A stretch of DNA of 64,000 nucleotides from an uncultured Gemmatimonadales bacterium (GCA_963730185.1 CAVSQW010000006.1:320001-384000); one strand, 5' to 3'; counted from the stretch's first letter, positions 9,576 through 40,458 are shown. Notes: generated by a model not told the origin, from the sequence alone. Numbers and translations: made by a program.

Positions 9576-9602
9576 GGCCCCACCGACACCGCGCCACCCG
9601 GC

Positions 9603-11196: not shown

Positions 11197-11220
11197 CGTG
11201 CTATTCCACTCCGTCAGAGG

Positions 11221-12189: not shown

Positions 12190-12364
12190 GGCGCGGTTCC
12201 TTCCATCAAAGAGTCCTACCCAGCAATCTACACCCCGGGCTGAAATGGGCCAAGTCCGCATATGACATTACTTTAGACCGTCTTCACGGGCTCGCGTCCT
12301 GACCCGGATGCCCTTCGGCGATCATCCCGCTATACTCCCGGTCCCCGACTCACGAGGAGTGAAG

Positions 12365-15565: not shown

Positions 15566-16641
15566 TCACGCCGGGGTCAGCACGGCCCGCCGCGACAGTT
15601 GTCCGTGGTGGGCCGCATCGAAAACCTGATTGATCTCGTTCAGCGGGTGGCGCTCGACGAACGGTCTGACCTTGATCCGACCCTGGCCGATCCAGGCCAG
15701 CAGCTCGGGATAGACCGAACGGGTCGGCGCCCCAGTTGCCTCGTGCCACGGCATCATAGGCCATGAGGTTCGACAGGGAGACTTCCATCTGGTCCATCGT
15801 GAACCCGACCACCGCCAGCGTGGCGCCGAATCCGAGGAGGCCGAACGCGGTCTCTTGCCCCGCCCGGGTGCCCGAGGTCTCGAAGATCTTCCAGAGGTGG
15901 GGCGGCGCTCCATCTGCTCGGCTTCGGCTCTGACCCGCTTCCGCATCTCCTTCACCGCGAGTCCGCGCAGATTCAAGACCGCCCGGGCGCCGGCTTGCCT
16001 GGGCCTGCTCCAGCTTGCCGTCGTCGACATCCAGCGCGATCACCAGGCCCCCGGACGCCGACGCGATCTGCACCGCGTGAATCCCGATCCCGCCGACCCC
16101 GACGACGACGGCCAGCTCGCCCTCGGCCAGGCCCGATCGCTGCACCGCCTGGAAGGGAGTCGCCACCGCGTCCGACACCACGGCGAGCTCCCAGAGCTCG
16201 TGCGGTCGCGAGCACCGCGTCCGGCACCGGACAGAGAAACCGGGCCGGCACGGTGACGTGGCTGGCATAGCCGCCGTCGCGGTCGTTGCCGGGCATCACC
16301 TGGCGGCGGCAGATCGTGCGGTGGCCGGCTCGGCAGAGATCGCACTCGCCGCAGGGCAGAACGGCCGGCACGATCACCGGCCGCCCCAGCAGCGACCGGT
16401 CCACGCCGGACCCGATCTCGGTCACCACCCCACTGATCTCGTGGCCCAGGACGAGGGGAAGCGCCTCCCGGGTCTTCACGCCCTGGTAGAGAAAGGAGAG
16501 ATCGGTGTGGCACACCCCGCACCCGGCCACCTCGACGACCGCTTCGCCGGCCACGGGAGCCACCGGCGGACCCCGCCGGTGCTCCAGCCGAGCTCCGATC
16601 GCGGTCATCGGCCACGCCTCCCATTGCTGGGGACTCGTCAT
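15566..16641 (-). CDS. had: 6-hydroxycyclohex-1-ene-1-carbonyl-CoA dehydrogenase (Zn-dependent MDR), about 4 frameshifts
   Basis: GCGVCHTD, GHEISG, PCGECDLC, RQVMPGND, GVGGIG, WKIFETSG, LSNLMAYDA, GNWG. Pieces lie in ORFs 15973..16695, 15510..16268 and 15566..16030. Confidence 0.85.
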
Positions 16642-16667: not shown

Positions 16668-18545
16668 CTAATCTCCGAAGACGAAGTTGCCGCACTCATG
16701 ACAGCGATCGAGCGTCCGGTCCCGCCCCGCGAAGCAGGGTCGGTCGTCCGGGCCCAACCGCATCACCTTGCGCAGGAACCGGCAGTCGCAATCCTCCGCC
16801 GGTTCGTAGACCGCATCGAGATACTCCTTCCGCGCCTCGAAGCACGTTCCGGAATCGGACCTTGAGGGACGGGGTGAGCTCCTGCTCCTCGACCGAGAGC
16901 TCCTTGCTGATCACGGCGAAGGCCTGGATCCGCTCGTACTTGACCGGGTGCGACAGCGTTGAACGCCAGCACCGACTCGCGAAGGGCCTGTTTCACCGCT
17001 CGGTCCGCGGCGGCCCGATCCTCGCCGAACTCTTCCTCGATCCGGAAGAAGTCGGGAAAGATCAGGGCACGCAGAAAATCACGTCCCTCGCCGGTCACGA
17101 TCACGTGACGAATGTACGGGCTCATCCCCGCCAGCCGGTTCTCGAGCTCGGTCGGGCACCACCTTCTCGGCGTTGAGCAGCTTGAAGACGCGGTCCTTCC
17201 GGGTGACGAGCCGGAGACCGGCCCCGACGAACTCACCCAGATCGCCGGTGTGAAACCACCCGTCGCCGGGCAACGCCCGCGCGGTGGCCTCCGGACTGTC
17301 GAAGTAACCCGGCATGACGTTGGGGCCCCGTACCAGGATCTCTCCGTCCGCCGCCAGCCGCAGCCGGACGCCGGGAATGGGATAGCCGACCATGCCCGGC
17401 GTGGTCCGCGGCTCGGCGGGATCGGTCACCGTGCAGCAGGGGGCGGTTTCGGTGAGCCCCCAACCCTCCTGCACCGCAATGCCGCGAGCCGCGAAGAAGG
17501 CCGAAAGGTTGGCCGGAAGCGGAGCCGCCGCGGTGAACACGAAGCGAAGCTCCGGGTGAAAGAGGCCGTCCGCGTCGGCCGGGTGCGTCTCGGCGTGACC
17601 GACGAGCTGCTGAAACACCTTCGGCACGCTGAAGTAGACCGTGGGCCGGACGGTCAGCCAGTTGGCGAGCAAGCGGTCGAAGTCCCGCCCGTAACTGTCG
17701 TCGAGAACGAGAAGGGCGCCGTTGTGGAGGGCCGCGTACTTCTCGAAGTTGCCGCCGAAGCTGTGATGCCAGGGGAGGTACGAGAGAAATCGGTCCTCGG
17801 CCGTCACCGACCAGACCGCCGCGGCCAGGGCCCGTTGCTGCGAGAGCAGGTTGTCGTGGGTGAGCAGCACACCCTTGTTCAGTCCGGTGGTCCCCGAGGT
17901 ATAGAGCATCAGGCACGCGGCGTCGGGATCGACTGCCACCGCCCGCGCCAGAAATCGGTCCGGAGCAACCGACCCGGCCCCAGCCAGGATCTCGTCCAAC
18001 CAGGTGTATCCCAGCGAGCGGCCGAGTCCGGCCGCCGCCAGCTCGCCCGTCGTGATCGGGTCGAAGGAGACAATCTCCCGGACCGAGGTCGGGACTCGCA
18101 CCCGGGCCAGCTGCCCGGCGTCGGCGAGCACGAGCACCGCCGGACGGGCCTGCCCGGCGAGCGCGCTGGCCTGCTCCATTGGGTAGCCGGCGAACACCGG
18201 TACGTGAATCGCGCCCAGGCCCATGACGGCGAACTCTGTCACCAGGAGCTCCCGTCGGTTCGGCGAAAAGGCGACGACCCGGTCGCCGGGGATTACGCCG
18301 ACCTCTTCCAGGTGTGCCGCCAACCGCGCCACGTCCGCGAGGAACGACCGCCAGCTCAGGGCTTCGAAGTCGCTCCCCCGGCGCTCCCACAGCATCGCGC
18401 GGTCGCCGAACCGCTCGACGTTTCGGGCCAGGAGCCCTCCCATCGACTCCCGCGGGCCGTCCACGGCCAGGGCCGAATGGATCTCGTCGCCGTCGCGAAC
18501 GGCGGCCCGAGCATGCCGTGCACTCGAACTGCCGCGCTCGTTCAT
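16668..18545 (-). CDS. AMP-forming acyl-CoA synthetase (long-chain type) with Cys-rich C-terminal tail, about 3 frameshifts
   Basis: YTSGTTGLNKG, LPWHH, EGWGLTE, FHTGDLG, ELTPSLKV. Hand translation of the last frame ends EDCDCRFLRKVMRL...PC...RCHECGNFVFGD*. Confidence 0.8.
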
Positions 18546-19369
18546 GGCGTCCTCCTGGAGTCCCGGTCGGCGGCGCGGGCGGCGCTCGGCCCGACGGACG
18601 GGGAGCCTTCCCGGGCGGCGAGCGCGGCCCCGATGGCGCCGATTTCCTGCGGATGGGGCGGGAGGATCACCTGCCGCTGGAGCACCCGCTCCAGCAGATC
18701 GACCATCGTCCGGTGATGAGCCACGACGCCGCCGGTGACGACTACGGTGCCCTGAAAGACGTCCATCTCGATCACCCGCTTGACCAGCGAGCGGTACGCC
18801 GCCCGGGCGAGGTCGGGCGGCCGCTTGCCGGCCCGGATCAGCGACAGGAGCTCGGTGCCCGCGAAGACGGTGCAGAAGCTGCCCAGCTCGATGTCCTCCG
18901 TGGCTCCGCCGGCCAATTGGTCGAGCTCGTCGACCACGATGCCCAGACGGAGGGCGATCTCCTCCAGAAAACTGCCCGTGCCCGCGGCGCATTTCCGGTT
19001 CATCCGGTGCGCCACCCGCCGGCCTGAGTCATCGAGGCGGATGACTTTGGCGTCCTGACCACCGATGTCGAGCACCACGAGCGGACCGTCCACGTAATGG
19101 GCCACCCCGCGCGCGTGGCAGTCGAGCTCCGTCCGAGACCCGTCGGCGAAGGGAATCGCTTCCCGGCCGAAGCCGGTGGCCCAGACGGCTTCGATCTCCG
19201 AACGGGCCACGCCGGCTCCCGCGAGCGCCAGCGCGAAGGCCCGTTCCGCGGCGGCGGCGAGATCGGCTCCCGAGCGCACCACGCCGGTGCCGGCGACGTC
19301 GCCCCGGGCATCGAGAATCGCGGCCTTGGTGTTCCACGAGCCACTGTCGATACCGGCGAACCAGGTCAT
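18542..19369 (-). CDS. BadF/BadG/BcrA/BcrD-family ATPase (acyl-CoA dehydratase activase), canonical motifs
   Basis: GIDSGSWNTK, TGFGR, CHARG, LDIGGQDAK, MNRKCAAGTGSFL, FCTVFA; ATGA-coupled at both ends. Confidence 0.9.
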   Translation of the reverse strand: MTWFAGIDSGSWNTKAAILDARGDVAGTGVVRSGADLAAAAERAFALALAGAGVARSEIEAVWATGFGREAIPFADGSRTELDCHARGVAHYVDGPLVVLDIGGQDAKVIRLDDSGRRVAHRMNRKCAAGTGSFLEEIALRLGIVVDELDQLAGGATEDIELGSFCTVFAGTELLSLIRAGKRPPDLARAAYRSLVKRVIEMDVFQGTVVVTGGVVAHHRTMVDLLERVLQRQVILPPHPQEIGAIGAALAAREGSPSVGPSAARAADRDSRRTP

Positions 19370-20610
19370 CCGGGCCTCGCTCGCCGCCCCGCCATCCGGG
19401 CATCCGCGAGGAGCTCGACGAAGCCCTCGAGGTTGGTGCGCGACTGCTCGTCGGAGAAACACCGGAGATCGTTCACATCGCCGTCGAGCACCAACGTGGG
19501 AATGCCCATCCGTTCCGCGAGGCGGCGGGGCATGCCATACCGGGTGTTGGTGTTGTTGGGGCAGGTCCGGCAATCATGGAAGACGATTCCGTCGACATCG
19601 TAAAACCTCGCCATCTCCTCGATGTAGCGTTCCTTCGGCTCCTCCGACCGGACGATGAACAGCTCGAGTGAGGCCCGGGCCATCGACCGAACCGGATCGG
19701 CCGGGTCGAGCGCCGAGAAGATCCAGCTGTTGCAGTAGGTGGACGCCACGACCGCGGTACGGAAGTCCGCCAGCAGGGTGCCGAGCGCTCGGAGTCGACC
19801 CCAGATCGGCATCCCCTCCCAGTAGAGTCGGTACGACTCGTCCGGGACCGCCGCGTCGCCGGCGGCTGCCCGCCCCTCCAGCTCGGCGAGCAAGGTCCGG
19901 TAATAGGCCGGGGCCTCCGGCGCCCCCCGCAGCACCACCGCCGGTCCCATGTGGATGGTGCCATCGAAAAAGGTGAGCGGCGCCGGATGATGCGCCCCGG
20001 TCTCCAGACAGGCTCGCCAGAGCTCCGAGCAGTCCCGCGACACCTGAACCGCCTCGGCCAGCCGGGTCGGGTCGAGTCGCCGTCCCGCCACCGCTTCGAG
20101 CGGAGGGATCAGGGCCTCGATCTGGGAGGCCACGCCGTCGACGTCGTCGGGTCGGACCTCGTCGATCGAGCGGGGTGAGCGAATCCCCACGACGGGCGCC
20201 CCCCAGCGCCGGCCGTAGAACTCGAACCAGTCCCGCACGTCGCGGCACTGGTTGGTGTTGAAGACCAGCACGTCCGCCCGGGGTACGCCACCGAGGCCGA
20301 ATCCCGCCAGCGGGGTTTCGCCGGCCAGGAACGCGCCGATGTCGCTCGTCAGGTAGGAGCAGATGTCCGGGGAGTACCCCAGGGCGTGAGCCCGGGGCAT
20401 CAGGTCGTTGGCCCGCCGGGTGGCCCCCAGCATGGCCGCGTGATTCTCCGGAAAGAACACCTGAAAACCCAGGGCCCGGAGCAACTCCGCCGGCCCGACG
20501 CTGGTGCACCAGGCGACCGGTGCCGTCTTCCGGGTCACGGCGTCGCCCAGGGCCGCGTAGTACGCGGCCATCGTCTCCTTGAGCGCCCCGGTGCTGGCCA
20601 GGGGGCTCAT
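19366..20610 (-). CDS. 2-hydroxyacyl-CoA dehydratase / BcrB-family [4Fe-4S] subunit
   Basis: PENHAA, DICSY, NTNQCR, HDCRTCPNN, DGDVNDLR; three expected cluster Cys present. Confidence 0.88.
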   Translation of the reverse strand: MSPLASTGALKETMAAYYAALGDAVTRKTAPVAWCTSVGPAELLRALGFQVFFPENHAAMLGATRRANDLMPRAHALGYSPDICSYLTSDIGAFLAGETPLAGFGLGGVPRADVLVFNTNQCRDVRDWFEFYGRRWGAPVVGIRSPRSIDEVRPDDVDGVASQIEALIPPLEAVAGRRLDPTRLAEAVQVSRDCSELWRACLETGAHHPAPLTFFDGTIHMGPAVVLRGAPEAPAYYRTLLAELEGRAAAGDAAVPDESYRLYWEGMPIWGRLRALGTLLADFRTAVVASTYCNSWIFSALDPADPVRSMARASLELFIVRSEEPKERYIEEMARFYDVDGIVFHDCRTCPNNTNTRYGMPRRLAERMGIPTLVLDGDVNDLRCFSDEQSRTNLEGFVELLADARMAGRRARPG

Positions 20611-21389
20611 GCGCGCCAGGCCTGGAGCGCCGCGCCGAGCGCGGCGGTGTGAATTGGGTCGGCCACGATCCGGACCGGGGTCCCGGCCATCGCCTCCAGG
20701 GCATGGACGACCCCCGGGAAGTACTCGGCCACGCCGCCGCACGCCGCCACCGGCGCCTCCAGGCCACCGATCTCGACGATCCGCTCGGCGATCGAGTGCA
20801 TGCTGCCGAGCGCGACCTCCTCGCAGGTGGCACCGTCGCGGAGCCGTTCCAGGATCTCGGTGCTCGAAAAGACCGAGCAGTAGCTGCTCACCGGCACCGG
20901 TCGGTCGCCCCCGGCCGCCAGCTCCTGGAGCCGGGTCGGATGGACGTCGAGGTGGCGCGCCGTGAACATCAGGAAGCTCCCGATCCCGAGCGCGCAGCGG
21001 CGCGACCCTCGGGCGTCCCCTCGGATCCCACTCCGGTCGACGGCCACCACCTGGGGCTCCCGTCCTCCGATCACGATCAGGGTCGCCGCCTCTCCCAGAT
21101 GATGGAACGCACCCAGGGCGTGGCACGTCGCCTCGGTGGCCGTTGCCGAAGCCCCCTTCACGCAGGCGGCCCCAAACCCGGTGGCCCAGACGCCGTCGAG
21201 GTCGGCGGCGGCACGCTGGGCATCGTCGAGGGCTGCCGTCAGCACCTCGTAGGCACAGGCCTGGAAGTAGCCCCGGGTCGGTACCACGGCCCGGCCCAGA
21301 ACCCGTTCCCCGGCTCCGAGCACGACCGCCTTGACACACTCGGTGCCGACGTCGACGCCGGCCACGATGCGATTCGTTTGTTCCGTCAT
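20607..21389 (-). CDS. BadF/BadG/BcrA/BcrD-family ATPase with degenerate second ATP motif
   Basis: GVDVGTECVK, TGFG, CHALG, VIGGRE in place of DIGGQD, RRCALGIGSFL, SYCSVF. Confidence 0.82.
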   Translation of the reverse strand: MTEQTNRIVAGVDVGTECVKAVVLGAGERVLGRAVVPTRGYFQACAYEVLTAALDDAQRAAADLDGVWATGFGAACVKGASATATEATCHALGAFHHLGEAATLIVIGGREPQVVAVDRSGIRGDARGSRRCALGIGSFLMFTARHLDVHPTRLQELAAGGDRPVPVSSYCSVFSSTEILERLRDGATCEEVALGSMHSIAERIVEIGGLEAPVAACGGVAEYFPGVVHALEAMAGTPVRIVADPIHTAALGAALQAWRA

Positions 21390-21400
21390 CGGTCCCTCCT

Positions 21401-23680
21401 TCAACTCGCGGGGCCGGCGGCGTACGCCGCCCCCCGCCGCTCCAGGAAGTCGGCCAGCAGGGCGCTGACCCGCTCCCCGGAGAAGAGTCGCGGATCGTGC
21501 GAGTCGGCCTCGAGAACCAGGGTCGGTACCCCGGTCGACGCCGTCAGCTTGCCCGCCAGCCCGTAGCGGACGTGGCTGGTCTCGGGCGTGGTGCGGCAAT
21601 CGTGCAGCAGAGCGGCGTCGACCCCGTACTCGTGCAGCGCGGAGGCCAGGAACGCCGTCTGGAAGGCCTCGGAGCGGTTGGCGAAGACGGCGCTGTAGCT
21701 CCGCGCCAGGCTGCCGATCGGATCGATCGGGTCGAGTCCCTCCAGCACGAACGACTCGCAGAAGGTCGACGCGACGATGGCGGTGCCGGACTCCGCGAAG
21801 ATCCGCGACAGCGGCCGGAGCGCGCACCAGATCGGCGGCCCGTCCCAGTAGAAGCGGAACCGCTCGCCCGGCACGGCGGCGACCCCCTGCGCCACCCGCT
21901 CCGTCAGCTCGTCTCGAAGGAGCTCGTAGTACTCGACGGCCGCCGGGGTCCCGCGGAGCAGGACCATCGGCGTGACGTGGATCAGCGTGTCGAAGAAGGT
22001 GAAGGGCGCCGGCACCGCCCGGGCCAGATCCAGGATCTCTCCCCAGAGCGTCGCGGCTCGGGCGGTGCAGGTCACCAGCTCCGACAGGCGGTCGAGGTCC
22101 AGCCCGCGATGGGTGATCTCCTCGAGGCGGGATGCCATCCGCAGCAGCTGCTGGATCGCGGCGTTCTCGTCGATCCGCTCGAGCTCGCCCAGCGCGGCCG
22201 GAGGATGGAGCCCGATGACCGGCACGTGGTAGTGCGTCCCGTAGAAATCGAACCAGTTGACCAGCGCTCGCCCGATGTTGGTGCTGTAGACCACCACGTC
22301 CGGCCGGGGCGGACCGCTCACGCCGTGGGCGCTCACCAGCGGGCTGTCGCCGGCCAGCAAGGCGCCCACGTCGGCCCGCATCGCCGAGCTGGCAAACTGC
22401 GAATAGCCCTCGGCCGTGGCCCGGGCGATGTACTTGGCCGCCTGACCGCTCGCCCCGATCAGCGCGGCGTGATTTTCCGGGAGGTAGGGCACCAGGTCCA
22501 GCGCTCGGACCAGCTCCACCGGGCCCAAACTGGAGCAGACCGCCACCTGGCGGTCCGGATCCTCGGACGCCGCGTCGAGATCGCGGTAGTACTCGTGGAT
22601 CAGCTCCTTGAGGCGCCGGGTGCTCTCCAGCGGCGGCCCGCTCGCCGGGATCCCGCCATCGCCCACCCGGCGCGTTGCCCGCCGCGCCGCCCGGGACGAC
22701 GGGGCGGCCTGGGGCGTCGGCAGCGCGACCTTCCGGGCGATTTCCTGCTTTCTAAGGAAGGTCTGCCGCTCCCGCGAGTGGATGAAATGCACCAGCGCGG
22801 CACAATGAGGCGCCGACAAGCCGACCCGGTCCGCCTCGGTGACGACGGCGCCGTTGATCGCATCGACCTCGGTCCGCTGGCCTCGCGCCAGGTCCTGCCA
22901 CATCGACGGACGATTCTTCGCGAGGGCCGTGAGCGAGCCGATCAGCGGGCGGAACGGATCCTCTTCGTCGACGATCGGCACGCCCCGAGCCCGCATCACC
23001 GCGACGATCTCGCCGCAGAGATCGCGCATGAACGCCATCAGGTCTTCGTCGCCCATCATCTCCCGGCAGCTCAGACCGGTCAGCGCCGAGACCGGGTTGA
23101 TCACCGCGTTGTGCAGCAGCTTCTGCCACACCACATGGTCCACGTTCGGGACCACGTTGGTCTCCAGCCCCGCCCGGCGGAACACCGTCCCGATCGCCTC
23201 GATCTCCGGCGTGATCGCCCCGGCGAACGGTGCGATCTGGATCGGCTTGATGCCCGGCCGATACTGGAGCCGACCCGGACCGGAGTGTTGGATGCTGTGG
23301 TAGGTGATGCCGGTGAGAACCCGGGCCGGACCGACCAGCCCGGCGATGGTCTCCGCGTTACCGAAGCCGTTCTGCATCGAGAGAAAGCGGGTGCTCGCGG
23401 TGGTGGCAGCGAGAATTCCGCGGGTTGCCGCTTCGGTCTGGTAGCTCTTGACGGCGATGAACACCAGATCGAACGGCGCGAGGCCATCGATTGCCGTCAC
23501 CACCGACACGGGGAAGTTGGCCTCCGCCTCGCCCACCTTCGACACCAGGAGACCGAACTCGATCAGGTGGCGGGCCCGGGCCTGATTGGCCTCGAGCAGC
23601 ACCACGTCCTCGCCCGCCCGGGTCAGGTAGGCACCGACCATCCCGCCCAACGCTCCCGCGCCCACGATCAGAATTCGCAT
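21401..23680 (-). CDS. Fusion: ketopantoate reductase (PanE/ApbA) + 2-hydroxyacyl-CoA dehydratase/BcrB-like domain lacking the Fe-S cysteines
   Basis: N-terminal GAGALG, VKSYQT, MQNG, WQKLLHN, PSMWQD, TEVDAING. C-terminal PENHAA domain paralogous to 19366..20610. Confidence 0.8.
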   Translation of the reverse strand: MRILIVGAGALGGMVGAYLTRAGEDVVLLEANQARARHLIEFGLLVSKVGEAEANFPVSVVTAIDGLAPFDLVFIAVKSYQTEAATRGILAATTASTRFLSMQNGFGNAETIAGLVGPARVLTGITYHSIQHSGPGRLQYRPGIKPIQIAPFAGAITPEIEAIGTVFRRAGLETNVVPNVDHVVWQKLLHNAVINPVSALTGLSCREMMGDEDLMAFMRDLCGEIVAVMRARGVPIVDEEDPFRPLIGSLTALAKNRPSMWQDLARGQRTEVDAINGAVVTEADRVGLSAPHCAALVHFIHSRERQTFLRKQEIARKVALPTPQAAPSSRAARRATRRVGDGGIPASGPPLESTRRLKELIHEYYRDLDAASEDPDRQVAVCSSLGPVELVRALDLVPYLPENHAALIGASGQAAKYIARATAEGYSQFASSAMRADVGALLAGDSPLVSAHGVSGPPRPDVVVYSTNIGRALVNWFDFYGTHYHVPVIGLHPPAALGELERIDENAAIQQLLRMASRLEEITHRGLDLDRLSELVTCTARAATLWGEILDLARAVPAPFTFFDTLIHVTPMVLLRGTPAAVEYYELLRDELTERVAQGVAAVPGERFRFYWDGPPIWCALRPLSRIFAESGTAIVASTFCESFVLEGLDPIDPIGSLARSYSAVFANRSEAFQTAFLASALHEYGVDAALLHDCRTTPETSHVRYGLAGKLTASTGVPTLVLEADSHDPRLFSGERVSALLADFLERRGAAYAAGPAS

Positions 23681-23710: not shown

Positions 23711-24484
23711 TCAGCTGTTGCTCCAGACCGGCGCCCGCTTCTCCGCGAACGAGGCGATGCCCTCACGTACGTCGGCCAGGTTCATCAGCTCCCCGAGGAA
23801 GACCCGCTCGGCCTCGAGCCGAGCCGCCTCGAAGGGCCGATCGCCAAGGGTCCGAACCATCCGGACGTTGAGGCGCATGACGGCCGGACTCGCCCGGCCC
23901 AGGTCGGTCAACACCGTCGTCATCGCGGCGTCGAGCTCGCTCGGGGCGACGACCCGGGTCACCAGCCCCATCGCGTGCATCTCGGCCGCCGAATAGGTGC
24001 GTCCCGTCCCGGTGACCTCCACCGCCCGTCCCGCCCCGATCCGCCGGGCGAGCCACGCGACGCCCACCGGCGCGAAGAAGCCCAGGCGGATCTCGGGTTG
24101 CCCGAATGCGGCCCGGTCAGAGGCCAGCAGAACGTCGGCCATCATCGCGATCTCGAACCCGCCACCCAGTGCGGCGCCGTCCACCGCCATCACCAGGGGA
24201 AGCTCGATCGCCCCCAACCGGCGAAAGAGCCGGCTGAACGAACCGATCATCGCGGGAGCCTGCTCGGGGCGATGCTCGCCGACGTCGGCGCCGGCCGAGA
24301 ACGCCTTGCCGTTGGCGCAGATCGCCACCGCCGTGAGAGTGCGGTCCCGGTCGGCGCGCTCCAAGGCGGCCTCGAGCTGGTCCATCATGCTCGCGGTGAG
24401 GATGTTGAGGGGCGGGGCGTCGAGCGTGATTCGGGCCGTCGAGCCCGTCACCTCGTACTGCACCAGCGCGCGATCGTTCGCCAT
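23711..24484 (-). CDS. dch: Cyclohexa-1,5-diene-1-carbonyl-CoA hydratase
   Basis: Crotonase with PPLNIL, FSAGADVGEH, ALGGGFE, GQPEIRLG; bcr operon context. Confidence 0.8.
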   Translation of the reverse strand: MANDRALVQYEVTGSTARITLDAPPLNILTASMMDQLEAALERADRDRTLTAVAICANGKAFSAGADVGEHRPEQAPAMIGSFSRLFRRLGAIELPLVMAVDGAALGGGFEIAMMADVLLASDRAAFGQPEIRLGFFAPVGVAWLARRIGAGRAVEVTGTGRTYSAAEMHAMGLVTRVVAPSELDAAMTTVLTDLGRASPAVMRLNVRMVRTLGDRPFEAARLEAERVFLGELMNLADVREGIASFAEKRAPVWSNS

Positions 24485-24495
24485 GGAGCCCCCTC

Positions 24496-25245
24496 CTACA
24501 TGTACTGGCCGCCGTCGACCCGAATCACCGTCCCGGTGAGATGCCGGGCGGGTCCCGAACACAGAAAGGTCACCACCGCCGCCACGTCCTCCGGCGTCCC
24601 CGCCCGGCCGAGGGCGCTCTCGGCCAGGGCCCGCTCCCGAACTGCCGCCGGCAGGTCGGCCGTCATCCCGGTGGCCACGAGCCCGGGTGCCACACAGTTC
24701 ACGGTGACCCCGGCCGGCCCGAGCTCGCGCGCCACCGTCTTGGTCAGGGCGATGACCCCGGCCTTCGACGCCGCGTAGTTGGCCTGGCCGGCCTTGCCCC
24801 GGATCCCGTTGATCGACGCCACCGTCACGATCCGCCCCCGCTGCTGGGCCCGGAACCGCGGCGCCACCGCTCGACAGAAGGTGAAGCAGCCCTTGAGATT
24901 CACGGCCAACACCTGATCCCAGGCGGCCTCGGTCAACTTCCACACCACGCCGTCCCGGGTGATGCCCGCGTTGCAGACCAGGATGTCGAGCCCGCCCAAC
25001 TCCTCGACCGTACGGGTTACGGCCGCCTCCGCCTGGTCGAGACTGGTCACGTCCGCCTCGATCGCGAGCGCCGGCCGGCCTTCCGATCGGAGCCGGGCCG
25101 CGAGCAATTGCGCCTGGTCGTGGCCCGCGAGGTCCACGAGCGCAACCGGGCAACCCTCGCCCGCCAGGCTGGTGGCGATCGTCGCCCCGATCCCACGCCC
25201 GGCGCCGGTCACCAGCGCCACCCGACCCGCCAACTCCAGGTCCAT
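24496..25245 (-). CDS. Short-chain dehydrogenase (FabG/BzdZ-like)
   Basis: TGAGRGIG, NAGITRD, YAASK. Confidence 0.88.
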   Translation of the reverse strand: MDLELAGRVALVTGAGRGIGATIATSLAGEGCPVALVDLAGHDQAQLLAARLRSEGRPALAIEADVTSLDQAEAAVTRTVEELGGLDILVCNAGITRDGVVWKLTEAAWDQVLAVNLKGCFTFCRAVAPRFRAQQRGRIVTVASINGIRGKAGQANYAASKAGVIALTKTVARELGPAGVTVNCVAPGLVATGMTADLPAAVRERALAESALGRAGTPEDVAAVVTFLCSGPARHLTGTVIRVDGGQYM

Positions 25246-25247
25246 CG

Positions 25248-26204
25248 TCAGCCGAGCTTGGCGCCGCAGCCGCCACAGAAGGTGAATTCGGACGGGATCC
25301 CGGTGGCCCCGCAGGACGGACAATCGAGGGCGTACGGTCCCCAGAGGAACTCGCTGCTTCCCCCAGCAGCTGCTTTGACCCGGAGGGCCCGCGGGTTGGA
25401 CTTTCGCTTCTCGACGAAGGCCCGCATCCCTTCGTACGGCTCGACCGTCGTGAAATGGGTGGAGAGCCAGTCCCGGGCGTGGCCGATGGTGGCATACCAG
25501 GCGGACTCCTTCCAGTAGTTCACCTGCTGCTTGGTGTAGCGGGTGCACTCGGGGAAGGTCTCAAGCACCTTCTCGGCGATGGCCTGGACCTCGTCGTCCA
25601 GCTTGGCGCGGGGCACCACCCGGTTGACCAGACCCCACTCCAGCGCCTGCTGGGCGGGGATCTTCGGGTTGAGGAACAGCATCTCACGGGCTCGCCGGTC
25701 GCCCACGTGGATCGAGAGCCACTGGGTCGCGCCCCCGGCGGCCACGCTCCCGACGCTGCTGCCCACCTGGCCGAGGTAGGTGTCGTCGGCCATGACGGCG
25801 AGATCGCAGGCCAGCTGCGACTCGTTCCCCCCACCCACCGCCATCCCGTTGATCCGGGCGATGGTCACCTTGCCGTTCCGGAAGATGCTCTCCAGGTACC
25901 GGCTGAAGAGGCCCATGTACTTCCAGTAGTCCCGGGGCCGCTTGGTGTATACGGCGGCGTACTCCTTGACGTCGCCCCCGGTACAGAAGGCCCGGTCGCC
26001 CGCGCCCGTGAACACCACGGCGCCGACCTGATCGTCGCAGGCGGCGTCCTCGAAGGCCGTGATCAGCTCGCGCAGGGTGTCGGTGGTGTAGGCGTTGTAC
26101 GCCCCGGGCCGGTTGATCGTGACCCGGGCGACCATGTCTTTCTTTTCGTACAGGATGTCCCGGAAGCCGAAGCCGTCAGCCGGTTTCGAAGCAAAGTATT
26201 CCAT
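25248..26204 (-). CDS. oah: 6-oxocyclohex-1-ene-1-carbonyl-CoA hydrolase (ring-opening) with C-terminal zinc ribbon
   Basis: YNAYTT, FCTGGDVKEYA, YMGLF, GGGNE, GSVAAGGATQWL; tail CPSCG...FCGGCG. Confidence 0.78.
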   Translation of the reverse strand: MEYFASKPADGFGFRDILYEKKDMVARVTINRPGAYNAYTTDTLRELITAFEDAACDDQVGAVVFTGAGDRAFCTGGDVKEYAAVYTKRPRDYWKYMGLFSRYLESIFRNGKVTIARINGMAVGGGNESQLACDLAVMADDTYLGQVGSSVGSVAAGGATQWLSIHVGDRRAREMLFLNPKIPAQQALEWGLVNRVVPRAKLDDEVQAIAEKVLETFPECTRYTKQQVNYWKESAWYATIGHARDWLSTHFTTVEPYEGMRAFVEKRKSNPRALRVKAAAGGSSEFLWGPYALDCPSCGATGIPSEFTFCGGCGAKLG

Positions 26205-26227: not shown

Positions 26228-27439
26228 TCAGTGTACGTTGACCTTCAGCACCACCGCCGCCGCGCTGTCACCGGCCGCACAACCGGTGAACAGGCCGTAC
26301 CCCCCGCCCGTCAGCGCCAGATCCTCGATCAGCTCGATCACCGACCGAAGTCCGGTCGGTCCCTGCGGGTGCCCCCAGACGAGCGAGCAGCCGCGCCGGT
26401 TCATCCGCTCGGGGTCGAGGCCCAGCTCGCGAGACAGATACACGTCGTTCACCGCAAACGGGTTATGGGTCGTGATCCCGGCGAGGTCCGCCGGGCCGAT
26501 CCCGGCGGCCTCCAAGGCCCGCCGCGCGGCCGGGACCGTGGCCATCGGCATCATCCCCTTGTCCACCCGGGCCTGGCCGAAGCCCCTGAGCTGGATCTCG
26601 ACGGCCGGGTCGCGGGCGAGAGCCCGGGCCCGTTCCCGCGACCCGGCCACCAGAAGGCCGGCGCTCCCGTCGGCAGGGTGGGTCTGGGTCCCGAAGGTCA
26701 CCGTGCCGTTCTCGAGCACCGGCTTGAGCCCAGCCAGCCCCGCCGCCGTCGTCCCGTGCACCCCTTCGTCTCCCGGGACGGTGGCAAGCACCTTCCGGCC
26801 GCGAGCGTCCTTGATCTCCACCGGGCGGATCATGTAGCGGGCCTGGAAGGCGCCGTCATCCGCGAGGGCGTCGGCGTACTGCCGGTATCGCAGCAACGTG
26901 ATCTCTTCCTGGGCCGCCCGGCTGATGTCCGCGGCCCGCGCCACGTTCTCCGCCGTCTGGAGCATCGAGTTCCGGGCCCAGGGATCGTGGCCGAAGCTGT
27001 CCAGCACCCAATCCTCCCGATCGCCCGTTCCTCCGGGGCCGGCGGGATTCGGGTAGTAGAGGTGTGGTCCGTTGCTGGTCCGATCGGCCGCGACCGTGAG
27101 GTGAACCGTCGCCGCCCCGCTCGCGACCTCGCCCGCCGCGTGGGCCAGGCATCGGGCCGAGGTCGCGCAGGCCTGGTTGATGGTGGGACCGGTCAGGTGG
27201 GGGAGCCCCGCCAGGCCGGCGAACCACGGCGCCCCGTAGAACGAGTACTTGCTCGGAATCGTGGTCCCGAAGCTCAGACCGTCGAGATCGGCCGGCGCGA
27301 CCCCGCGCGCCTCCAGCGCTTGATGCGCCAGGCTCGCGGCCAGAGGAATCGGCGGCTGGGTGGCGAAGCTGCCCTGCCAGGCACAAAACGGCGACGTCCA
27401 GTAGCCACCGTAGGGAATCCACACGTCATTGACCCGCAT
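26228..27439 (-). CDS. Thiolase of aromatic-degradation clusters
   Basis: IPYGGYWTSPF, QACATS, HNPFAVND, GHPQGPTG, GCAAGD. Confidence 0.88.
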   Translation of the reverse strand: MRVNDVWIPYGGYWTSPFCAWQGSFATQPPIPLAASLAHQALEARGVAPADLDGLSFGTTIPSKYSFYGAPWFAGLAGLPHLTGPTINQACATSARCLAHAAGEVASGAATVHLTVAADRTSNGPHLYYPNPAGPGGTGDREDWVLDSFGHDPWARNSMLQTAENVARAADISRAAQEEITLLRYRQYADALADDGAFQARYMIRPVEIKDARGRKVLATVPGDEGVHGTTAAGLAGLKPVLENGTVTFGTQTHPADGSAGLLVAGSRERARALARDPAVEIQLRGFGQARVDKGMMPMATVPAARRALEAAGIGPADLAGITTHNPFAVNDVYLSRELGLDPERMNRRGCSLVWGHPQGPTGLRSVIELIEDLALTGGGYGLFTGCAAGDSAAAVVLKVNVH

Positions 27440-28369: not shown

Positions 28370-28828
28370 TCAGTCGGGCCCGGCGACAGCGCGCTCCAGC
28401 ACCAGCCGCGGGACCGGCATGAAGCGGGACCGACCGAAGAAGCCGAGGAGCTCGAGCTCGCTCCACGCTACCTCGGTCCGCAGTCGCTCGATCCGGAGTC
28501 CCGACAGATTGAGCAGCAGCTGTTCCAGCAGCGCCGTCGCGATCCCCTGACGGGCAAAGGCCCGGTCCACCAGGATCGTGTCCAGCACCGCGACCGGCTC
28601 GGGCTGGCCAAATTCGCCATAGTGCACCGAACCCAACAACGCGCCGACCAGGGTTCCGTCCATCTCGGCCCCCAGCGAGATGTTCACGTCGGTGTCGGCG
28701 AGGGCTCGCTGGATCTTGCCTTCGTACCAGGCGGGCCGCTTCCGCCCGCTGACCTGGAAATCCATGGTCACGAGCCGGGCGCAGTCGGCCAGCCGGAGGG
28801 CCCGGATCGTCAGTTCGTCGCCGCCCAT
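28370..28828 (-). CDS. GNAT acetyltransferase (BadL-like)
   Basis: VHYGEFGQPEPVAVLDTILV, RQGIATALL; directly follows bcrD. Confidence 0.8.
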   Translation of the reverse strand: MGGDELTIRALRLADCARLVTMDFQVSGRKRPAWYEGKIQRALADTDVNISLGAEMDGTLVGALLGSVHYGEFGQPEPVAVLDTILVDRAFARQGIATALLEQLLLNLSGLRIERLRTEVAWSELELLGFFGRSRFMPVPRLVLERAVAGPD

Positions 28829-29661
28829 GCCACGCCTCCCTGTCCGAGCTTCCGGTAGCGGAAGCCGCCCCAGAGCGCCGCGCCGATGGCGCCGGCGAAG
28901 ATCGCCTGGTCGTGCGTCATGACCTCGACGGCGGCCGCCTCGGCGCCGAGCCGTTTGACCAGCGCGTCACGCAGGGCGGCAAGCAGGCCCGGGTCGCCGG
29001 CCAAGCCACCGCTCACGAACACGACGCCGTCGAGGTGCAACGATCGGAGCAACCGCGCGAACCGATCGGCCATGCTCTCGTGTACCCCCCGGAGGATGTC
29101 CGCCGTGGCGATCCCCCGGGAGACCATGTTGATCACGTCGGTCTCGGCCAGCACCGCGCAGATCGAGCTCACCTTCTCCGGCTGCTTGGCCTGGAGCGAG
29201 AGAGGTCCGATTTCGTCGTGCGAAACTCCCAAATACCGGGCGATGTTCTCCAGAAACTGACCCGAGCCCGAGGCGCACTGGCTGGTCATCTTGTAGTCCG
29301 TGACCCGACCCCGCGGGTCCATCGCGACCGCTCTGGTGTGCAGCGCGCCGACGTCCAACACCGCCCGCGACCGGGGCTCCAGATAGAGCGCCCCGCGCGC
29401 GTGCGTCGTCATCCCGTAGAAGTGGCCGGTGGCGAAGGGGACCTCCTCCCCCTCCCCCGTCGTCGCGATGTAGTCGATGTGATCCACACCCGCCTCGGTG
29501 CGGGCCGCCTCGAACACCTCGTCGATCACCTTGGCGACCTCTCGGCGGCGGATTCGGGCCGAGGTTCGGCTCAACAGCTGCTCCATGCCTGCGTCGTCGG
29601 TCGCCATGAAGACCGTCTTGACGGCGCCACTTCCCACGTCGATGCCCGCGCTGATTTGCAT
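28810..29661 (-). CDS. bcrD: Benzoyl-CoA reductase subunit D
   Basis: GIDVGSGAVK, GHFYGMTTHARGA, KMTSQCASGSGQFLENIARYLG, SSICAVLAETDVINMVSRG. Confidence 0.93.
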   Translation of the reverse strand: MQISAGIDVGSGAVKTVFMATDDAGMEQLLSRTSARIRRREVAKVIDEVFEAARTEAGVDHIDYIATTGEGEEVPFATGHFYGMTTHARGALYLEPRSRAVLDVGALHTRAVAMDPRGRVTDYKMTSQCASGSGQFLENIARYLGVSHDEIGPLSLQAKQPEKVSSICAVLAETDVINMVSRGIATADILRGVHESMADRFARLLRSLHLDGVVFVSGGLAGDPGLLAALRDALVKRLGAEAAAVEVMTHDQAIFAGAIGAALWGGFRYRKLGQGGVAWAATN

Positions 29662-30933
29662 CAGGCCACCATCCGATGCGCAAAGAGGGCCGCGCCCCAC
29701 GCCCCGGTGAAGATGCTGTCGGGCGAGATGTTGATGGTCCGCTCGCCGTAGTTCTCCTGCACCAGCTCCCGCACCGCCCGGACCGCCGCCGGGTTCTTGG
29801 CGACACCGCCGGTGAAGGTGAACTCGTCGGAGACGCCTCCCGAGCGCGCCAGGAGGCTCATCGCGCGAAGGATGATCGCCCGATGGAGACCGGCCAGGAT
29901 GTCCTCCCGACGCTCACCGAGGGAGAGCAGCTCCCGAAGCTCGGCCCCGGCGAACACCGTACAGGTCGAATTGATCTTGACGCAGCGGGTCGACTGCTCG
30001 GCCAGGGGGCCGAGCTCGTGGAGGCCCAGGTTCATTTCGTCCGCGATGTACCCCAGATACCGGCCGCAGCCGGCCGCGCACCGGTCGTTCATCTGAAAGC
30101 CGGTCACGATGCCCTGGCCGTCCACCTGAATGGCCTTGGTGTCCTGCCCACCGATGTCCAGCACCGTGCGCGAGGCTGGGAACATCGCGTGCGCCCCCAA
30201 CCCGTGGCAGAGAATCTCGGAGCGGATCTGCTCCTTGGGGAACGGCAGCCGGGCCCGGCCATAGCCGGTGCCGACCGTGGCGGCCGGTTCCAGGTCGGCC
30301 GCCATCGCCGCGTCGACCGCCGCCGCCAACTCCGGCGGCGCCTTGAGCCGTTTGAGGGCGGAGCCGATGTGGTCTCGGAAGTCGAGCGCCAGCGGCTCGT
30401 TCTCGACCCGGATGATGCACTTGTCGTAGACCCCCACCAGGTGGTCGAACGACACCCCGTTGGGATCGGCCACCAGCTCGGCCAGCCGCATGAAGGCCGA
30501 CCCGGCCGCGTCCCGGAAGAAGTCGGACCGCGGCGGGGGCTGGAGCTGCTTGAAGCGATGCTCCTCCTCCTCGACGATCCGGCGGCAGATGGTGCCGATC
30601 GCCGCCGCGAAGGCGGGCCGGGACCGGGATCCGGATCGCTCGACCTCTTCCAGCATCAGCGCTTCCAGGTGCCGGCAGCTGGTGCAGCGTCTGCTCCAGG
30701 CGAAAGGCCCGCCGCAGCCGCTGCACCTGCACCGCACCGATCTCCCCCTCGACCCGCTTCTGGACCAGGGCGAACCGGGCGTTGATGAACGCCTCGGTCC
30801 GAGCGACCCCGGCGGCCAGGTCGTAGTTCGATCGCGAGTTGGTGATGCCCCGCCCGAGTACCTCCTGGCGCTCGTCGAGGATCACCGCCTTGGTGGTGGT
30901 GGAGCCGAGATCGATCCCGATGACGCAGCTCAT
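29661..30933 (-). CDS. bcrA: Benzoyl-CoA reductase subunit A, one frameshift near 30670
   Basis: [54 protein letters not shown]. Confidence 0.92.
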
Positions 30934-32211
30934 ACCGCGGCCACCTCTCCGGCGCGCCGCGCCTCGATCATCTGGAAATAGCTCTCCAGCCGGTTCTTGA
31001 TGTTCGCGGCCCCGAAATAGCGGGGATCGACCAGGTCGGACTCGATGAAGCCGCCGGGGATCCCGGTTCGAGCCTCGACTTCGCGAAGCATCATCAGCTG
31101 ACCGGCGGAGAAGGAGTTGCAGGACTTGACCGAATTGATCAGGAAGCCATCGGCCTCGTACTCACGGACGTAGCGGGCCAGCATCTCGATCCGGGAGGGG
31201 AGGTTGAGGTTGGTGTAGCAGCCGCTGCAGTAGTCGGCCATCGTCCCGATCGGATCGTCGGGATCATGACGGAACCCGAAGTCGTAGGTGCCGCCGACCT
31301 TGGTGTAGGTCGACGCCACCACCACCGCGCCCTCATCGGCAAACATCTTCCAGAAGTCGCGGAAGTGGGTCCAGTTGGGCGGCCCCTCCACCACCAGCCG
31401 ATACTTCTGATCGTTGAGCGGCCCCTCGGGGGTGATCGGTCCGAGGCCCAGACGGATCCGCTCCTCGATCTCGGCTCGGAGGGCGCGGTAGTACTCGACC
31501 CCCTCGGGGGTGCCCCGGAACGCGCTGAAGATCGGCCCGACGTAGTACACCGTTCCGAAGTAGCCGTCGATCGGACTCGGTCGCCGCTTCGCCGCGTGCA
31601 GCACCGCGACCAGGTCGTCCTCGGCCTGGGCAGCCAGAGCCAGCCGCTCCCGGAGCTTGTCCTCGTCGTACTTGCGGCCGGTGGCCTGCTTCCAGCGCCG
31701 GGATCACCTGCTCGCGGAGCTGCCGGATCATGTAGCTCCCGGTGCTCCGGCTCGAGCCGCCCATCACCCTGGTAGGGCACGTGGAAGAAGACGATGGGGC
31801 AGTCGTACTCCTCGCGGAGCAGCTCGAACCACTTCATGAAGGTGTAGCAGCCGGTGTAGGACAGCAGCAGCAGGTCGGGCTTGGGGAGCCGGGTACCGGC
31901 CGGACCGATGTTGCCGGACTTGAGCATGCCGAGGTCGCACTTGACGTAGGTGCAGACGTCTTCCGAATGCCCCGCCCGCTCCGCCTCCGCGATGTAGTCG
32001 GCGGAAAGCTTCCGCATGCCGGACTGCAGTGCATTGATCTCCGGCAGCACCGGCAGGGCGTCGAACGACCGGATCAGCTCCGCCAGGTTGCCGGGAACGA
32101 AGGTGTAGACCACCGGCTCGCCGGTCTCGGCGCCCGCTCCAGCCGCTCGAAATGCTCCGCGATCATCTCCTTCTGGAGCACCATCGAGCGGTCCTTCAGG
32201 GCCTCCGCCAT
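30930..32211 (-). CDS. bcrB: Benzoyl-CoA reductase subunit B, about 3 frameshifts
   Basis: SMVLQKEMIA, TFVPGNL, GHSEDVCTYVK, SYTGCYTFMKWFE, INSVKSCNSFSAGQ, ESDLVDPRYF. Confidence 0.92.
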
Positions 32212-33377
32212 TATGCACCTCCCCACAGCTTGATCGAGTCGGAGAACGTGCCTGCCTGCTCCCGGTACTGTTGGAACTGCCCCGTGTTCTCCGAATACTT
32301 GAAGGCGATGCACGGGATGCCCGCCGCCTCGGCGCCGGTCCGCAACATCGGCTGATCGAGAAGGGCGGGGTCACAGAAGCTCGGGGCGGCGAAGATGATC
32401 CCGTCGGCCCGCGCGGCCGCGACCCGCTCCCGCATCAGGCGCCGCTTGCCGGCGGGGTCCGGCTCGTACAGCACCGAGGTGTGGAGGTTGTTGCCCACCA
32501 GCGCCTCGGCGAGCGCTCGCACCGGATCACCGTCCAACGAGACGTCGCCCTGGAGGAACCGATTGCCGAGCACAAAGTCGTCGTCGACGATGTAGCAGCC
32601 GGCCCGCTCGATCGACTTGATCAGGCCCAGAGGCGGCTGCTCGCAGAACGCACCCGTCACCACGACCCGGCTGTTGTCCCGGAGCCGGCCCGGCTCCTCC
32701 GCCACCGCTTCGAGGTAGCGGCTCGCCTGGCTCAGGAACTCCGATGCCGGCGCCACCTCACCCGCCCGCATCAGCAGATAGAGCTCTTCGCTGGGGACGT
32801 CCGCCGGTCGCTCCCGCCGGGCGTCGTAGAGCGAGCGCACCATGCGACGGACCTCGTTGTACAACGCGAGCGAGCCGCGGAGCTCGGACTCGGTGGGCGG
32901 CCGCCCCGACCGCTCCCCGAGATCGGCGATGACGTGCCGCAGCTCGGCTTCCCAGAAATCGGTCGCCAGGGCGCGATCGGGCGCCTGAGGAACGTCCATG
33001 TACCGGACATAGAGGTCCGGATAGAGCAGCTTCCAGATCCCGGAGAGGTTCCGGATGACGTCGCAGGTCGACGGGAAGAGAATCGCCGACAGGAAATCGA
33101 GCCGCCCGGACTGGGCCAGCTCGATCACCGACCGCGGGAGGTGACAGATATAGGACTGATAGAAGGCGTCGCCTCGGATGATCTCGAGACGGTCGCCGCC
33201 GCCGTGGATCCCTACGGGATGGTAGCCACAGGCGTGCAGCAGCTCGCGGGGAGCATAGACCGGCAGGTAGCCACCGGCCAGGCGGCCGGGCTCCTCGGCC
33301 AACCAGCTCCGGACCGAGGTGAAGTCGAGGTCTTCGTACAGGCCCCGAGCCCAATCAACCACAGTGGCTCGCGACAC
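32211..33377 (-). CDS. bcrC: Benzoyl-CoA reductase subunit C
   Basis: LYEDLDF, GDAFYQSYICH, FPSTCDVIRNLSG, PSFCDPALLD, EQAGTFSDSIKLW; GTG start with GGAGG RBS. Confidence 0.93.
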   Translation of the reverse strand: MSRATVVDWARGLYEDLDFTSVRSWLAEEPGRLAGGYLPVYAPRELLHACGYHPVGIHGGGDRLEIIRGDAFYQSYICHLPRSVIELAQSGRLDFLSAILFPSTCDVIRNLSGIWKLLYPDLYVRYMDVPQAPDRALATDFWEAELRHVIADLGERSGRPPTESELRGSLALYNEVRRMVRSLYDARRERPADVPSEELYLLMRAGEVAPASEFLSQASRYLEAVAEEPGRLRDNSRVVVTGAFCEQPPLGLIKSIERAGCYIVDDDFVLGNRFLQGDVSLDGDPVRALAEALVGNNLHTSVLYEPDPAGKRRLMRERVAAARADGIIFAAPSFCDPALLDQPMLRTGAEAAGIPCIAFKYSENTGQFQQYREQAGTFSDSIKLWGGA

Positions 33378-33519: not shown

Positions 33520-33587
33520 GGGGTCCCCTCCCCTCCGAAGCATGCCGTTCGTTCCTTTGCGCCCGGGTGCCCCGGGGGGAGTCACGT

Positions 33588-39006: not shown

Positions 39007-39009
39007 TCG

Positions 39010-40458
<1,449 letters not shown>

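Follow-up and report, generated by a model that had tools for sequence, protein, structure and literature searches.

A five-gene module inside a benzoyl-CoA reductase operon of an uncultured Gemmatimonadales bacterium encodes a probable ATP-activated aryl-lactyl-CoA dehydratase

A stretch of 64,000 nucleotides from an uncultured Gemmatimonadales bacterium (GCA_963730185.1, CAVSQW010000006.1:320001-384000; hereafter the window) carries a benzoyl-CoA reductase (BCR) operon with a module of five minus-strand genes, flanked by dch (stop at 23711) and had (start at 16641). G1 (21401..23680) encodes a 759-residue protein with ApbA, ApbA_C and HGD-D domains (Pfam, NCBIfam): residues 1 to ~305 form a PanE/ApbA-type 2-oxoacid reductase, followed by a cluster-less alpha-type dehydratase subunit, here called alpha0. 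G2 (20607..21389) is a BcrAD_BadFG (PF01869) activator in which both [4Fe-4S] cysteines are present and the ATP site is altered, G3 (19366..20610) an HGD-D protein and intact alpha (catalytic-type) subunit, G4 (18542..19369) an intact ASKHA activator of the BcrAD_BadFG family, and G5 (16668..18545) an AMP-forming CoA ligase with PF00501 (AMP-binding) and PF23562 domains. Eleven nucleotides separate G1 from G2, and ATGA overlaps join G2 to G3, G3 to G4 and G4 to G5, in agreement with the initial annotation, which had described five tightly spaced genes between dch and had with the last four ATGA-linked. No Rfam match was found in window positions 14000-36000.

A CoA ligase had also been named as the fifth gene. 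The family assignment holds (AMP-binding), but three frameshifts interrupt the frame in this assembly, which is rich in single-base indels and in which G5, bcrB and had are all split. Contigs of close relatives have one base fewer at each of the three breaks, 16826, 16955 and 17153 (two runs, low depth). The breaks are thus probably assembly errors and G5 is probably intact in life; it is a single open frame in the 8 relatives inspected. The C-terminal tail of G5 (window 16668-16800, minus strand) is Cys-rich, with the pattern CDC-x18-C-x9-CHxC in 8/8 of the relatives inspected, and is a possible metal or FeS site.

G3 has the hallmarks of a catalytic subunit of the HGD-D superfamily: it matches PF06050 at 204 bits and carries three cluster cysteines (C84, C122 and C350), all of which are kept in 119 of 120 orthologues. 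Its relatives were fetched from 160 loci, two scans each giving the best 80 out of over 575, with some DNA in both collections; 27 of these loci are of the five-gene type, 131 hold a lone alpha gene and 2 are too short to tell. Ser37, which has a catalytic role in HadB, and Glu55 are present in 120/120 orthologues and 131/131 lone alphas. The protein scores under every equivalog cut-off, the HadB model giving 191 bits where 750 are needed. HadB (PDB 3O3M) is nonetheless its best solved relative by sequence, at ~28% identity. A structure model of G3 (predicted local distance difference test, pLDDT, 90.8) matched the folds of HadB with a Z of 49.3 (root-mean-square deviation 1.8 over 395 residues), BzdO with 46.9, MbdO with 41.7 and DCCP, a protein with a double-cubane cluster, with 33.5. 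Residues W34, S37, P40, N56 and A59 are those of all three HadB-like references, and S37, P40, N56 and A59 are not shared by the aligned BcrB and Mbr-like sequences. By sequence and fold, then, the large subunits are nearer HadB than BcrB, contrary to their first description as BcrB-like.

Identity as a double-cubane enzyme was considered and rejected. The seven-Cys motif described for DCCP (PMC7317905) is absent, G3 having five family-wide cysteines (35, 84, 122, 293 and 350), and NF040772 scores 42 against a cut-off of 350. The two extra cysteines, 35 and 293, are kept in 130/131 and 127/131 lone alphas, and C293 aligns with a DCCP cysteine in a GEETC stretch; they are possibly the remnant of a second sub-cluster site.

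The dehydratase domain of G1 is 42% identical to G3, and S431, G470 and T698 occupy the positions of the ligands C84, C122 and C350. All three being non-Cys, the PanE-fused dehydratase is ligand-less, as originally proposed; 111/120 fusions have no ligand Cys at these positions and 9/120 have one. The equivalent of Glu55 is kept in 119/120, and the PENH motif is kept as well. A substitute cluster site in alpha0 was looked for and is unlikely: a cysteine stands at G3-equivalent position 35 in 118, at 293 in 75 and at 347 in 102 of 120 fusions, too variable for a fixed ligand set. The PanE domain passes TIGR00745 (242 versus 141 bits) and has the Rossmann motif and catalytic Lys/Lys/Glu residues, with scores under every equivalog cut-off. 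Its residues K78, N104, K187 and E271 are present in 120/120 homologues. Position 30 is acidic in 112/120, which suggests a preference for NADH. Some PanE-annotated enzymes are described as D-2-hydroxyacid dehydrogenases (bioRxiv 10.1101/2024.01.05.573888).

The activators form a similarly unequal couple, 34% identical to each other. G4 exceeds the TIGR00241 cut-off with its ATP motifs and both cysteines intact; an intact activase beside an intact dehydratase had been anticipated, and the cluster cysteines of both genes and the ATP motifs of G4 agree. G2 retains its cluster cysteines, C132 and C171, as do 26/26 orthologues, and reads VIGGREPQ where G4 reads DIGGQDAK at the ATP-site motif. Among G2 orthologues, the first Asp of DIGGQD is kept in 42% and its Gln is replaced by Arg in 80%. 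The corresponding stretch contacts phosphates in the DCCP activator, DCCP-R (PMC9351452), and the ATP site of G2 is therefore altered, though not necessarily dead.

These altered genes are not decaying. Median dN/dS is 0.29 for alpha0 and 0.31 for G2, with 0.23 for G3, 0.23 for G4 and 0.25 for dch; these are rough estimates by the NG86 method with dS near 1, from 18 loci and 153 pairs per core gene (105 pairs for dch). Both alpha0 and G2 are under purifying selection. The first copy had been called degenerate in both genes, and this stands for the altered residues, not for decay. The PanE-alpha0 fusion is full-length in all 120 listed G1 homologues (119 non-self, 61-88% identity), and this, together with dN/dS, rules out an artefactual fusion or a pseudogene.

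In phylogenies, G3 falls together with alpha0 and the lone alphas in a single clade (99-100 in the Shimodaira-Hasegawa-like approximate likelihood ratio test, SH-aLRT), set apart from BcrB (L015), Mbr-like (L011), BzdO (L169) and HadB (P0360) sequences. Branch support throughout is SH-aLRT or FastTree only, and no tree reference was identified as FldB, HgdA or LcdA. The large subunits grouped with neither BcrB/MbdO/BzdO nor BcrC/BzdN, nor did the ATPases group with BcrA/BcrD: G2 and G4 cluster with the activators of lone alphas, split from BcrA/BcrD by a branch with SH-aLRT 98. HadB likewise falls in a separate clade. The phylogenetic comparison with known subunits that the initial annotation had called for thus returned a clade outside the characterised BCR and HadB groups, and its second check, on co-occurrence and selection, returned five genes that travel together under purifying selection.

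These trees make the second pair a paralogue that arose inside the family, which bears out part of the earlier idea of a duplicated dehydratase-activase pair. The other part, that G3-G4 were duplicated in tandem, is neither established nor refuted. In free trees alpha0 lies at the base of the family, not as sister to G3, and G2 is not sister to G4, but a tree constrained to unite alpha0 and G3 was not rejected (approximately unbiased test, p-AU 0.06). Simple tandem duplication is therefore unproven. The subtree of alpha0 is broadly a mirror image of that of G3, a sign of long co-inheritance.

A predicted complex supports a pseudo-symmetric alpha0/G3 dimer, an arrangement first raised as one of two options for the module. 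The G3/alpha0 model scored 0.75, the best of three controls scoring 0.00; the mark used was reached by 116/157 solved and 2/215 mismatched pairs, counts that are only rough here. Separate runs shared at least 94% of contacts, with a partner pLDDT of at least 90, and the two chains use equivalent positions at 35 of the 42 interface sites. Since similar dimers have been solved (HadBC, BzdNO, DCCP), the pass may reflect likeness to them. Conservation adds to the model: the alpha0 interface scores 0.85 against 0.76 elsewhere in the domain (p 0.007 by permutation, with columns that are not independent), with no such excess in G3. Electron delivery to such a dimer is conceivable on structural grounds. 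In the DCCP:DCCP-R complex, the activator cluster lies on the twofold axis, ~17 A from the clusters of both subunits (PMC9351452). A relay cluster is therefore not geometrically required, and direct delivery to a single alpha cluster is plausible.

The five genes stand in order in 16/16 five-gene loci with enough flank, a different AMP ligase being present in 4 of these. The module follows oah and dch in the same order in 3/40 relatives, in two of which an Mbr-like reductase, not Bcr, lies beside it. Among 300 sampled genomes of the phylum, G3 was found in 10, all with alpha0 and with BcrB over its cut-off; another 53 have a BCR-like match only. The named homologues, too, point to a host in Gemmatimonadota. 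The HGD-D genes of the window's genome are G1, G3, bcrC and the split bcrB, which bears out the earlier remark that the module has no second BcrC-like gene. No beta gene lies in the module and alpha0 has no ligands, so a cluster-bearing beta subunit is missing from it; a beta-type gene does occur in 6/6 tested five-gene genomes, adjoining another alpha-type gene.

The module in its five-gene form derives from a far wider family, which has two genes and no beta subunit. Relatives with a lone alpha share 55-65% identity with G3 and were found in Thermodesulfobacteriota, Planctomycetota, Verrucomicrobiota, Bacillota, Chloroflexota and archaea; named members, at 54-60%, include Desulfonema magnum, Desulfatirhabdium butyrativorans and Geobacter argillaceus. 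A beta-type gene accompanies 1/131 lone-alpha loci, and that one belongs to a Bzd operon. Exactly one PF06050 gene is present in 11/44 lone-alpha genomes, and the HadC model has no match in 13/44 (completeness not given for either count). Two of the beta-less cases (G083 and G044) are single contigs amounting to essentially whole genomes, and the remaining 31/44 genomes hold beta-like or DCCP-like genes elsewhere. With no second family gene in those 11 genomes, no beta subunit seems to be needed. In the literature searched, from which most subscription journals were absent, neither the five-gene module nor a dehydratase without a beta subunit was found to be described.

The neighbourhoods of the lone alphas are informative as to function. 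Where 4 kb or more flanks the gene on each side (52 loci), an activator is present at 51, a CoA ligase or transferase at 33, beta-oxidation genes at 25, PanE at 13, an arylpyruvate:ferredoxin oxidoreductase at 10 and a beta subunit at 1. One run (L091) reads dch, hydratase/dehydrogenase, had, iorAB, paaK, panE, alpha, activator, ligase, thiolase. An unrelated lineage shows an independent fusion of PanE, in this case with an intact alpha (P0242). Acyl-CoA dehydrogenase genes occur at only 4/160 loci, a rarity that argues against a Stickland-type reduction of the product. In Planctomycetota and Verrucomicrobiota, a lone alpha is found in the arrangement fadJ, alpha, activator, metallo-beta-lactamase, fabH, to which a benzoate-CoA ligase is at times added (L030, L033, L040, L041, L048, L056, L067, L085 and similar loci); these loci may provide a biosynthetic pathway with an aryl-CoA starter.

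The surrounding minus-strand operon encodes the central benzoyl-CoA pathway. A canonical class I BCR, bcrCBAD, occupies 28810..33374 (starts approximate). It was correctly set down as additional to the module: all four genes score best to their own models (TIGR02263, 02260, 02259 and 02261), bcrC and bcrD above cut-off, and bcrB and bcrA are split by frameshifts in the assembly. The oah, short-chain dehydrogenase/reductase and dch genes (23711..26204) match TIGR03200, TIGR01830 and TIGR03189 best, all below cut-off, and had (15566..16641) matches TIGR03201 best, with frameshifts. Two further genes could complete a route from cinnamoyl-CoA. A thiolase gene (26228..27439, minus strand) is a candidate for the benzoyl-CoA-releasing step, or alternatively for the lower pathway from pimelyl-CoA. 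A 680-residue 3-hydroxyacyl-CoA dehydrogenase/enoyl-CoA hydratase fusion (33567..35609, plus strand; Pfam), divergent from bcrC, is a candidate cinnamoyl-CoA beta-oxidation enzyme. Compared across the 63 BCR-like-positive genomes of the phylum (10 + 53), thiolase orthologues (69-74% identity) occur in 10/10 module genomes and 0/53 others, and the fusion in 9/10 and 0/53, the tenth having its bcrB at a contig edge.

Together these observations make it probable that the module encodes a radical (R)-aryl-lactyl-CoA dehydratase, activated by ATP and accompanied by a reductase and a ligase of its own, that would feed phenylpyruvate-type compounds into the benzoyl-CoA pathway. Phenyllactyl-CoA is a likely substrate, and intermediates of aromatic amino-acid degradation would in this way reach benzoyl-CoA. 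Five steps would be involved: (i) the PanE domain of G1, whose catalytic residues are in place, would reduce aryl-pyruvate to (R)-aryl-lactate, presumably with NADH; (ii) G5, a ligase by family, would make aryl-lactyl-CoA; (iii) G2 and G4, with two cysteines each, would pair as an activator heterodimer, bridged by one [4Fe-4S] cluster and having a single canonical ATP site; (iv) G3 and alpha0 would form the predicted pseudo-twofold dimer with a single cluster, to which the activator would pass one catalytic electron directly, and, by the mechanism of HadBC, a ketyl radical would lose water to give cinnamoyl-CoA; (v) the hydratase/dehydrogenase fusion and the thiolase would yield benzoyl-CoA (or 4-hydroxybenzoyl-CoA) for BCR, and acetyl-CoA. 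The alpha0 domain would serve as structural partner and also tether the reductase to the dehydratase. Substrates and reaction direction are those we infer from the neighbourhoods and the active site. Much the same funnel had been hypothesised at the outset, from 2-oxoacid through 2-hydroxyacid, its CoA ester and enoyl-CoA to benzoyl-CoA, and phylogeny, active site, neighbourhoods and co-occurrence with beta-oxidation genes all favour it. Mandelyl-CoA, which has no removable beta-hydrogen, is ruled out as a dehydratase substrate.

The closest functional analogues are HadBC/HadI (PDB 3O3M, 4EHT) and FldBC/FldI, which share with the module the fold, three cluster cysteines, Ser37, Glu55, an ASKHA activator, and a linked 2-oxoacid reductase and CoA-activating enzyme. 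Unlike them, the module has no beta subunit, its catalytic partner is an alpha paralogue without cluster ligands, and its activator is predicted to be heterodimeric; its ligase stands in place of a CoA transferase, its PanE-type reductase is fused to the partner, and its product would likely be beta-oxidised rather than reduced. The class I BCRs BcrCBAD, MbdONPQ (9G87, 9GAI) and BzdNOPQ (8S02) resemble it in superfamily, 2+2 layout, two unequal ATPases and presence in the same operon, but differ in falling in separate clades (large subunits and ATPases) and in having a BcrC/BzdN-type subunit, and the asymmetry of the module is of independent origin. DCCP/DCCP-R (6ENO, 7YYL) combines a single-gene catalytic dimer with a single-gene activator, as in the lone-alpha relatives; G3 lacks its seven-Cys motif and has an alpha-type sequence and a CoA-ester-type site. 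On this reading the module would function like HadBC/FldBC, but it departs from them in beta subunit and clade, and it is not a class I BCR.

A parallel in Desulfococcus multivorans (Dmul_24850-24870) is known from annotation and proteomics, and likewise combines a lone alpha, activator, reductase, ligases, fusion and thiolase with adjoining benzoyl-CoA pathway genes. The genes listed there include iorA3B3, an ACT gene, a putative phenylpyruvate reductase, an activator and a 416-residue 'R-phenyllactate dehydratase subunit alpha', together with two ligases, TRAP genes, a 680-residue fusion and a thiolase, and the list names no beta subunit (PMC5109826). Proteins of the cluster are reported to form on phenylacetate and phenylpyruvate, and growth on phenyllactate is reported too (Doerries et al. 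2016, PMC5109826); the step to benzoyl-CoA is there called 'unclear at present'. D. multivorans differs in having one alpha and one activator, a separate reductase, iorAB in the cluster and a class II BCR. At locus L044 the order ACT-panE-activator-alpha-ligase recurs, and TRAP genes are close by. Synteny, length and close named relatives suggest that the D. multivorans alpha is orthologous to G3, in which case the link of this cluster to growth on phenylpyruvate and phenylacetate would support the proposed pathway.

Several points weigh against the reading of the module as an aryl-lactyl-CoA dehydratase, or against parts of it. The lead of HadB over BzdO in the fold comparison is just ~2 Z units, and W296 does not discriminate, since Trp is also found in BzdO and Tyr in one HadB-like reference. 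Among the long lone-alpha loci, 19/52 are without a CoA-activating gene and 39/52 without PanE. The co-occurrence counts are not independent, because the genomes are related and carry the genes on a single inherited island; moreover, genome G004 has the module with no hydratase/dehydrogenase orthologue found, and the thiolase is absent from loci L011 and L013. The window's genome has an IorA match of only 25% and no IorB match, so entry from phenylacetate may not apply here. The two subunits of these dehydratases are described as both cluster-bearing, the beta one probably storing an electron (PMC7317905), and no precedent for a one-cluster dimer was found in the literature searched. As to D. 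multivorans, the orthology of its alpha is argued from context, and the three genes are read there in the opposite direction, from phenyllactate to phenylpyruvate, and are not named among the detected proteins in the running text of that account (PMC5109826).

Among the alternatives, the best surviving keeps the pathway and changes the roles: G3 and G4 would act as homodimers, as in the lone-alpha relatives, with alpha0 and G2 as pseudoenzyme regulators or scaffolds (for example a CoA-ester sensor on the fused reductase, or a brake on ATP use). An alpha and one activator can indeed be the whole system in those relatives, the retained Glu55 equivalent and PENH motif would let alpha0 bind a ligand, and neither altered copy is sister to its intact counterpart in free trees. 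We consider it unlikely all the same, given that both G2 cluster cysteines persist in 26/26 orthologues, as expected of half of a cluster-bridged dimer, that the dimer face of alpha0 is selectively conserved, and that alpha0 is present in 10/10 sampled genomes with G3.

It is slightly less probable that the enzyme dehydrates non-aromatic 2-hydroxyacyl-CoAs, derived from branched-chain 2-oxoacids or 2-oxoglutarate, and is merely sited in an aromatic island. The nearest solved enzyme does use 2-hydroxyisocaproyl-CoA, no aromatic genes are seen at many lone-alpha loci, and PanE-like dehydrogenases are described as taking branched-chain 2-oxoacids (bioRxiv 10.1101/2024.01.05.573888). The genomic setting of the module speaks for aromatic substrates, however: central benzoyl-CoA genes stand at 13/16 and Hcr/Xdh-type genes at 12/16 of the long five-gene loci, a true BcrB is present in 10/10 module genomes, and IorAB and PaaK recur beside the lone-alpha relatives.

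A second aryl-CoA reductase for substituted benzoates was the other function first suggested; such an enzyme, or a reductive dehydroxylase, working alone or with a borrowed BcrC, appears improbable. Placement within a dch/had operon, a heterodimeric ATPase as in class I BCRs, a beta-type gene in all six tested module genomes, a small residue at G39 as in BcrB and Mbr-like sequences (Phe in HadB), and BzdO as second-best fold match would all fit it. The subunits nevertheless lie outside the BCR clades in a family that is often beta-less, and the PanE fusion is left unexplained. BCRs are described as requiring two electrons, stoichiometric ATP and an electron-storing partner cluster (PMC11971306), a cluster that alpha0 cannot bind. 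Borrowing of BcrC is likewise disfavoured, as 13/44 lone-alpha genomes have no beta-like match at all and the neighbouring reductase varies in type between module genomes, being of another type in two relatives. Finally, a reversed module, hydrating enoyl-CoA to 2-hydroxyacyl-CoA and oxidising this to the 2-oxoacid, would agree with the phenyllactate-to-phenylpyruvate reading in D. multivorans (PMC5109826) and with FAD-linked 2-hydroxyacid dehydrogenases beside 11/131 lone-alpha loci, but is very improbable, with no thioesterase identified in the module and with an AMP-forming ligase, an enzyme that drives acid activation, next to a dehydration whose favoured direction is towards conjugated cinnamoyl-CoA.

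More tentatively than the dehydratase function itself, a broader proposal can be made. The family might constitute a third and widespread architecture among BCRs and 2-hydroxyacyl-CoA dehydratases, one without a beta subunit: alpha2 homodimers in strict anaerobes and, here, a one-cluster alpha0/alpha dimer with one canonical ATP site and a fused reductase. It would open an undescribed route from aryl-pyruvate through cinnamoyl-CoA to benzoyl-CoA and, with a reversed arylpyruvate:ferredoxin oxidoreductase, would also be the missing phenylacetate pathway of Pad-less sulfate reducers. Characterised 2-hydroxyacyl-CoA dehydratases and class I BCRs are described with two cluster-bearing catalytic subunits (PMC7317905). 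If the proposal is true, a natural one-cluster dimer, with an activator that has one canonical ATP site, would directly test the need for the second cluster and the second ATP in ATP-driven electron transfer. The family is also a testable answer to how phenylacetate and phenylpyruvate reach benzoyl-CoA in Pad-less sulfate reducers. A 2026 study of benzene needed a cinnamoyl-CoA-forming dehydratase and did not assign its gene (PMC13416013). Cultured hosts of the lone-alpha form are at hand in D. magnum, D. butyrativorans and G. argillaceus.

Further features of the island were seen in passing. The Mbr-like reductase beside the module lies at L011:16800-19730, L012 and L014 (G004, G010) and scores under the Bcr and Bzd cut-offs; sub-cut-off BCR matches (E <= 1e-45) in 46/63 of the BCR-like-positive genomes point to a large unstudied group of class I BCRs. 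The oah-like hydrolase, with similar Oah and BadI scores, ends in a zinc-ribbon-like CxxC...CxxC tail (window 25248-25330, minus strand) with a weak DUF7577 match. Between bcrD and the thiolase lie genes for a GNAT acetyltransferase and a TetR regulator (window 28370-28828 and 27426-28139, minus strand); several relatives have hcrA-type genes upstream of tetR, missing at that place in the window. A hemerythrin-like open reading frame after had (window 14971-15531, minus strand), assigned by eye, might serve the operon as an accessory related to oxygen or iron. The anaerobic operon is itself flanked by genes for the aerobic phenylacetyl-CoA epoxidase (paaA and paaC, window 9600-12261, minus strand) and for the benzoyl-CoA epoxidase pathway (boxB and boxC, window 37300-40458, plus strand), so that oxygen-dependent and anoxic routes share one aromatic island.

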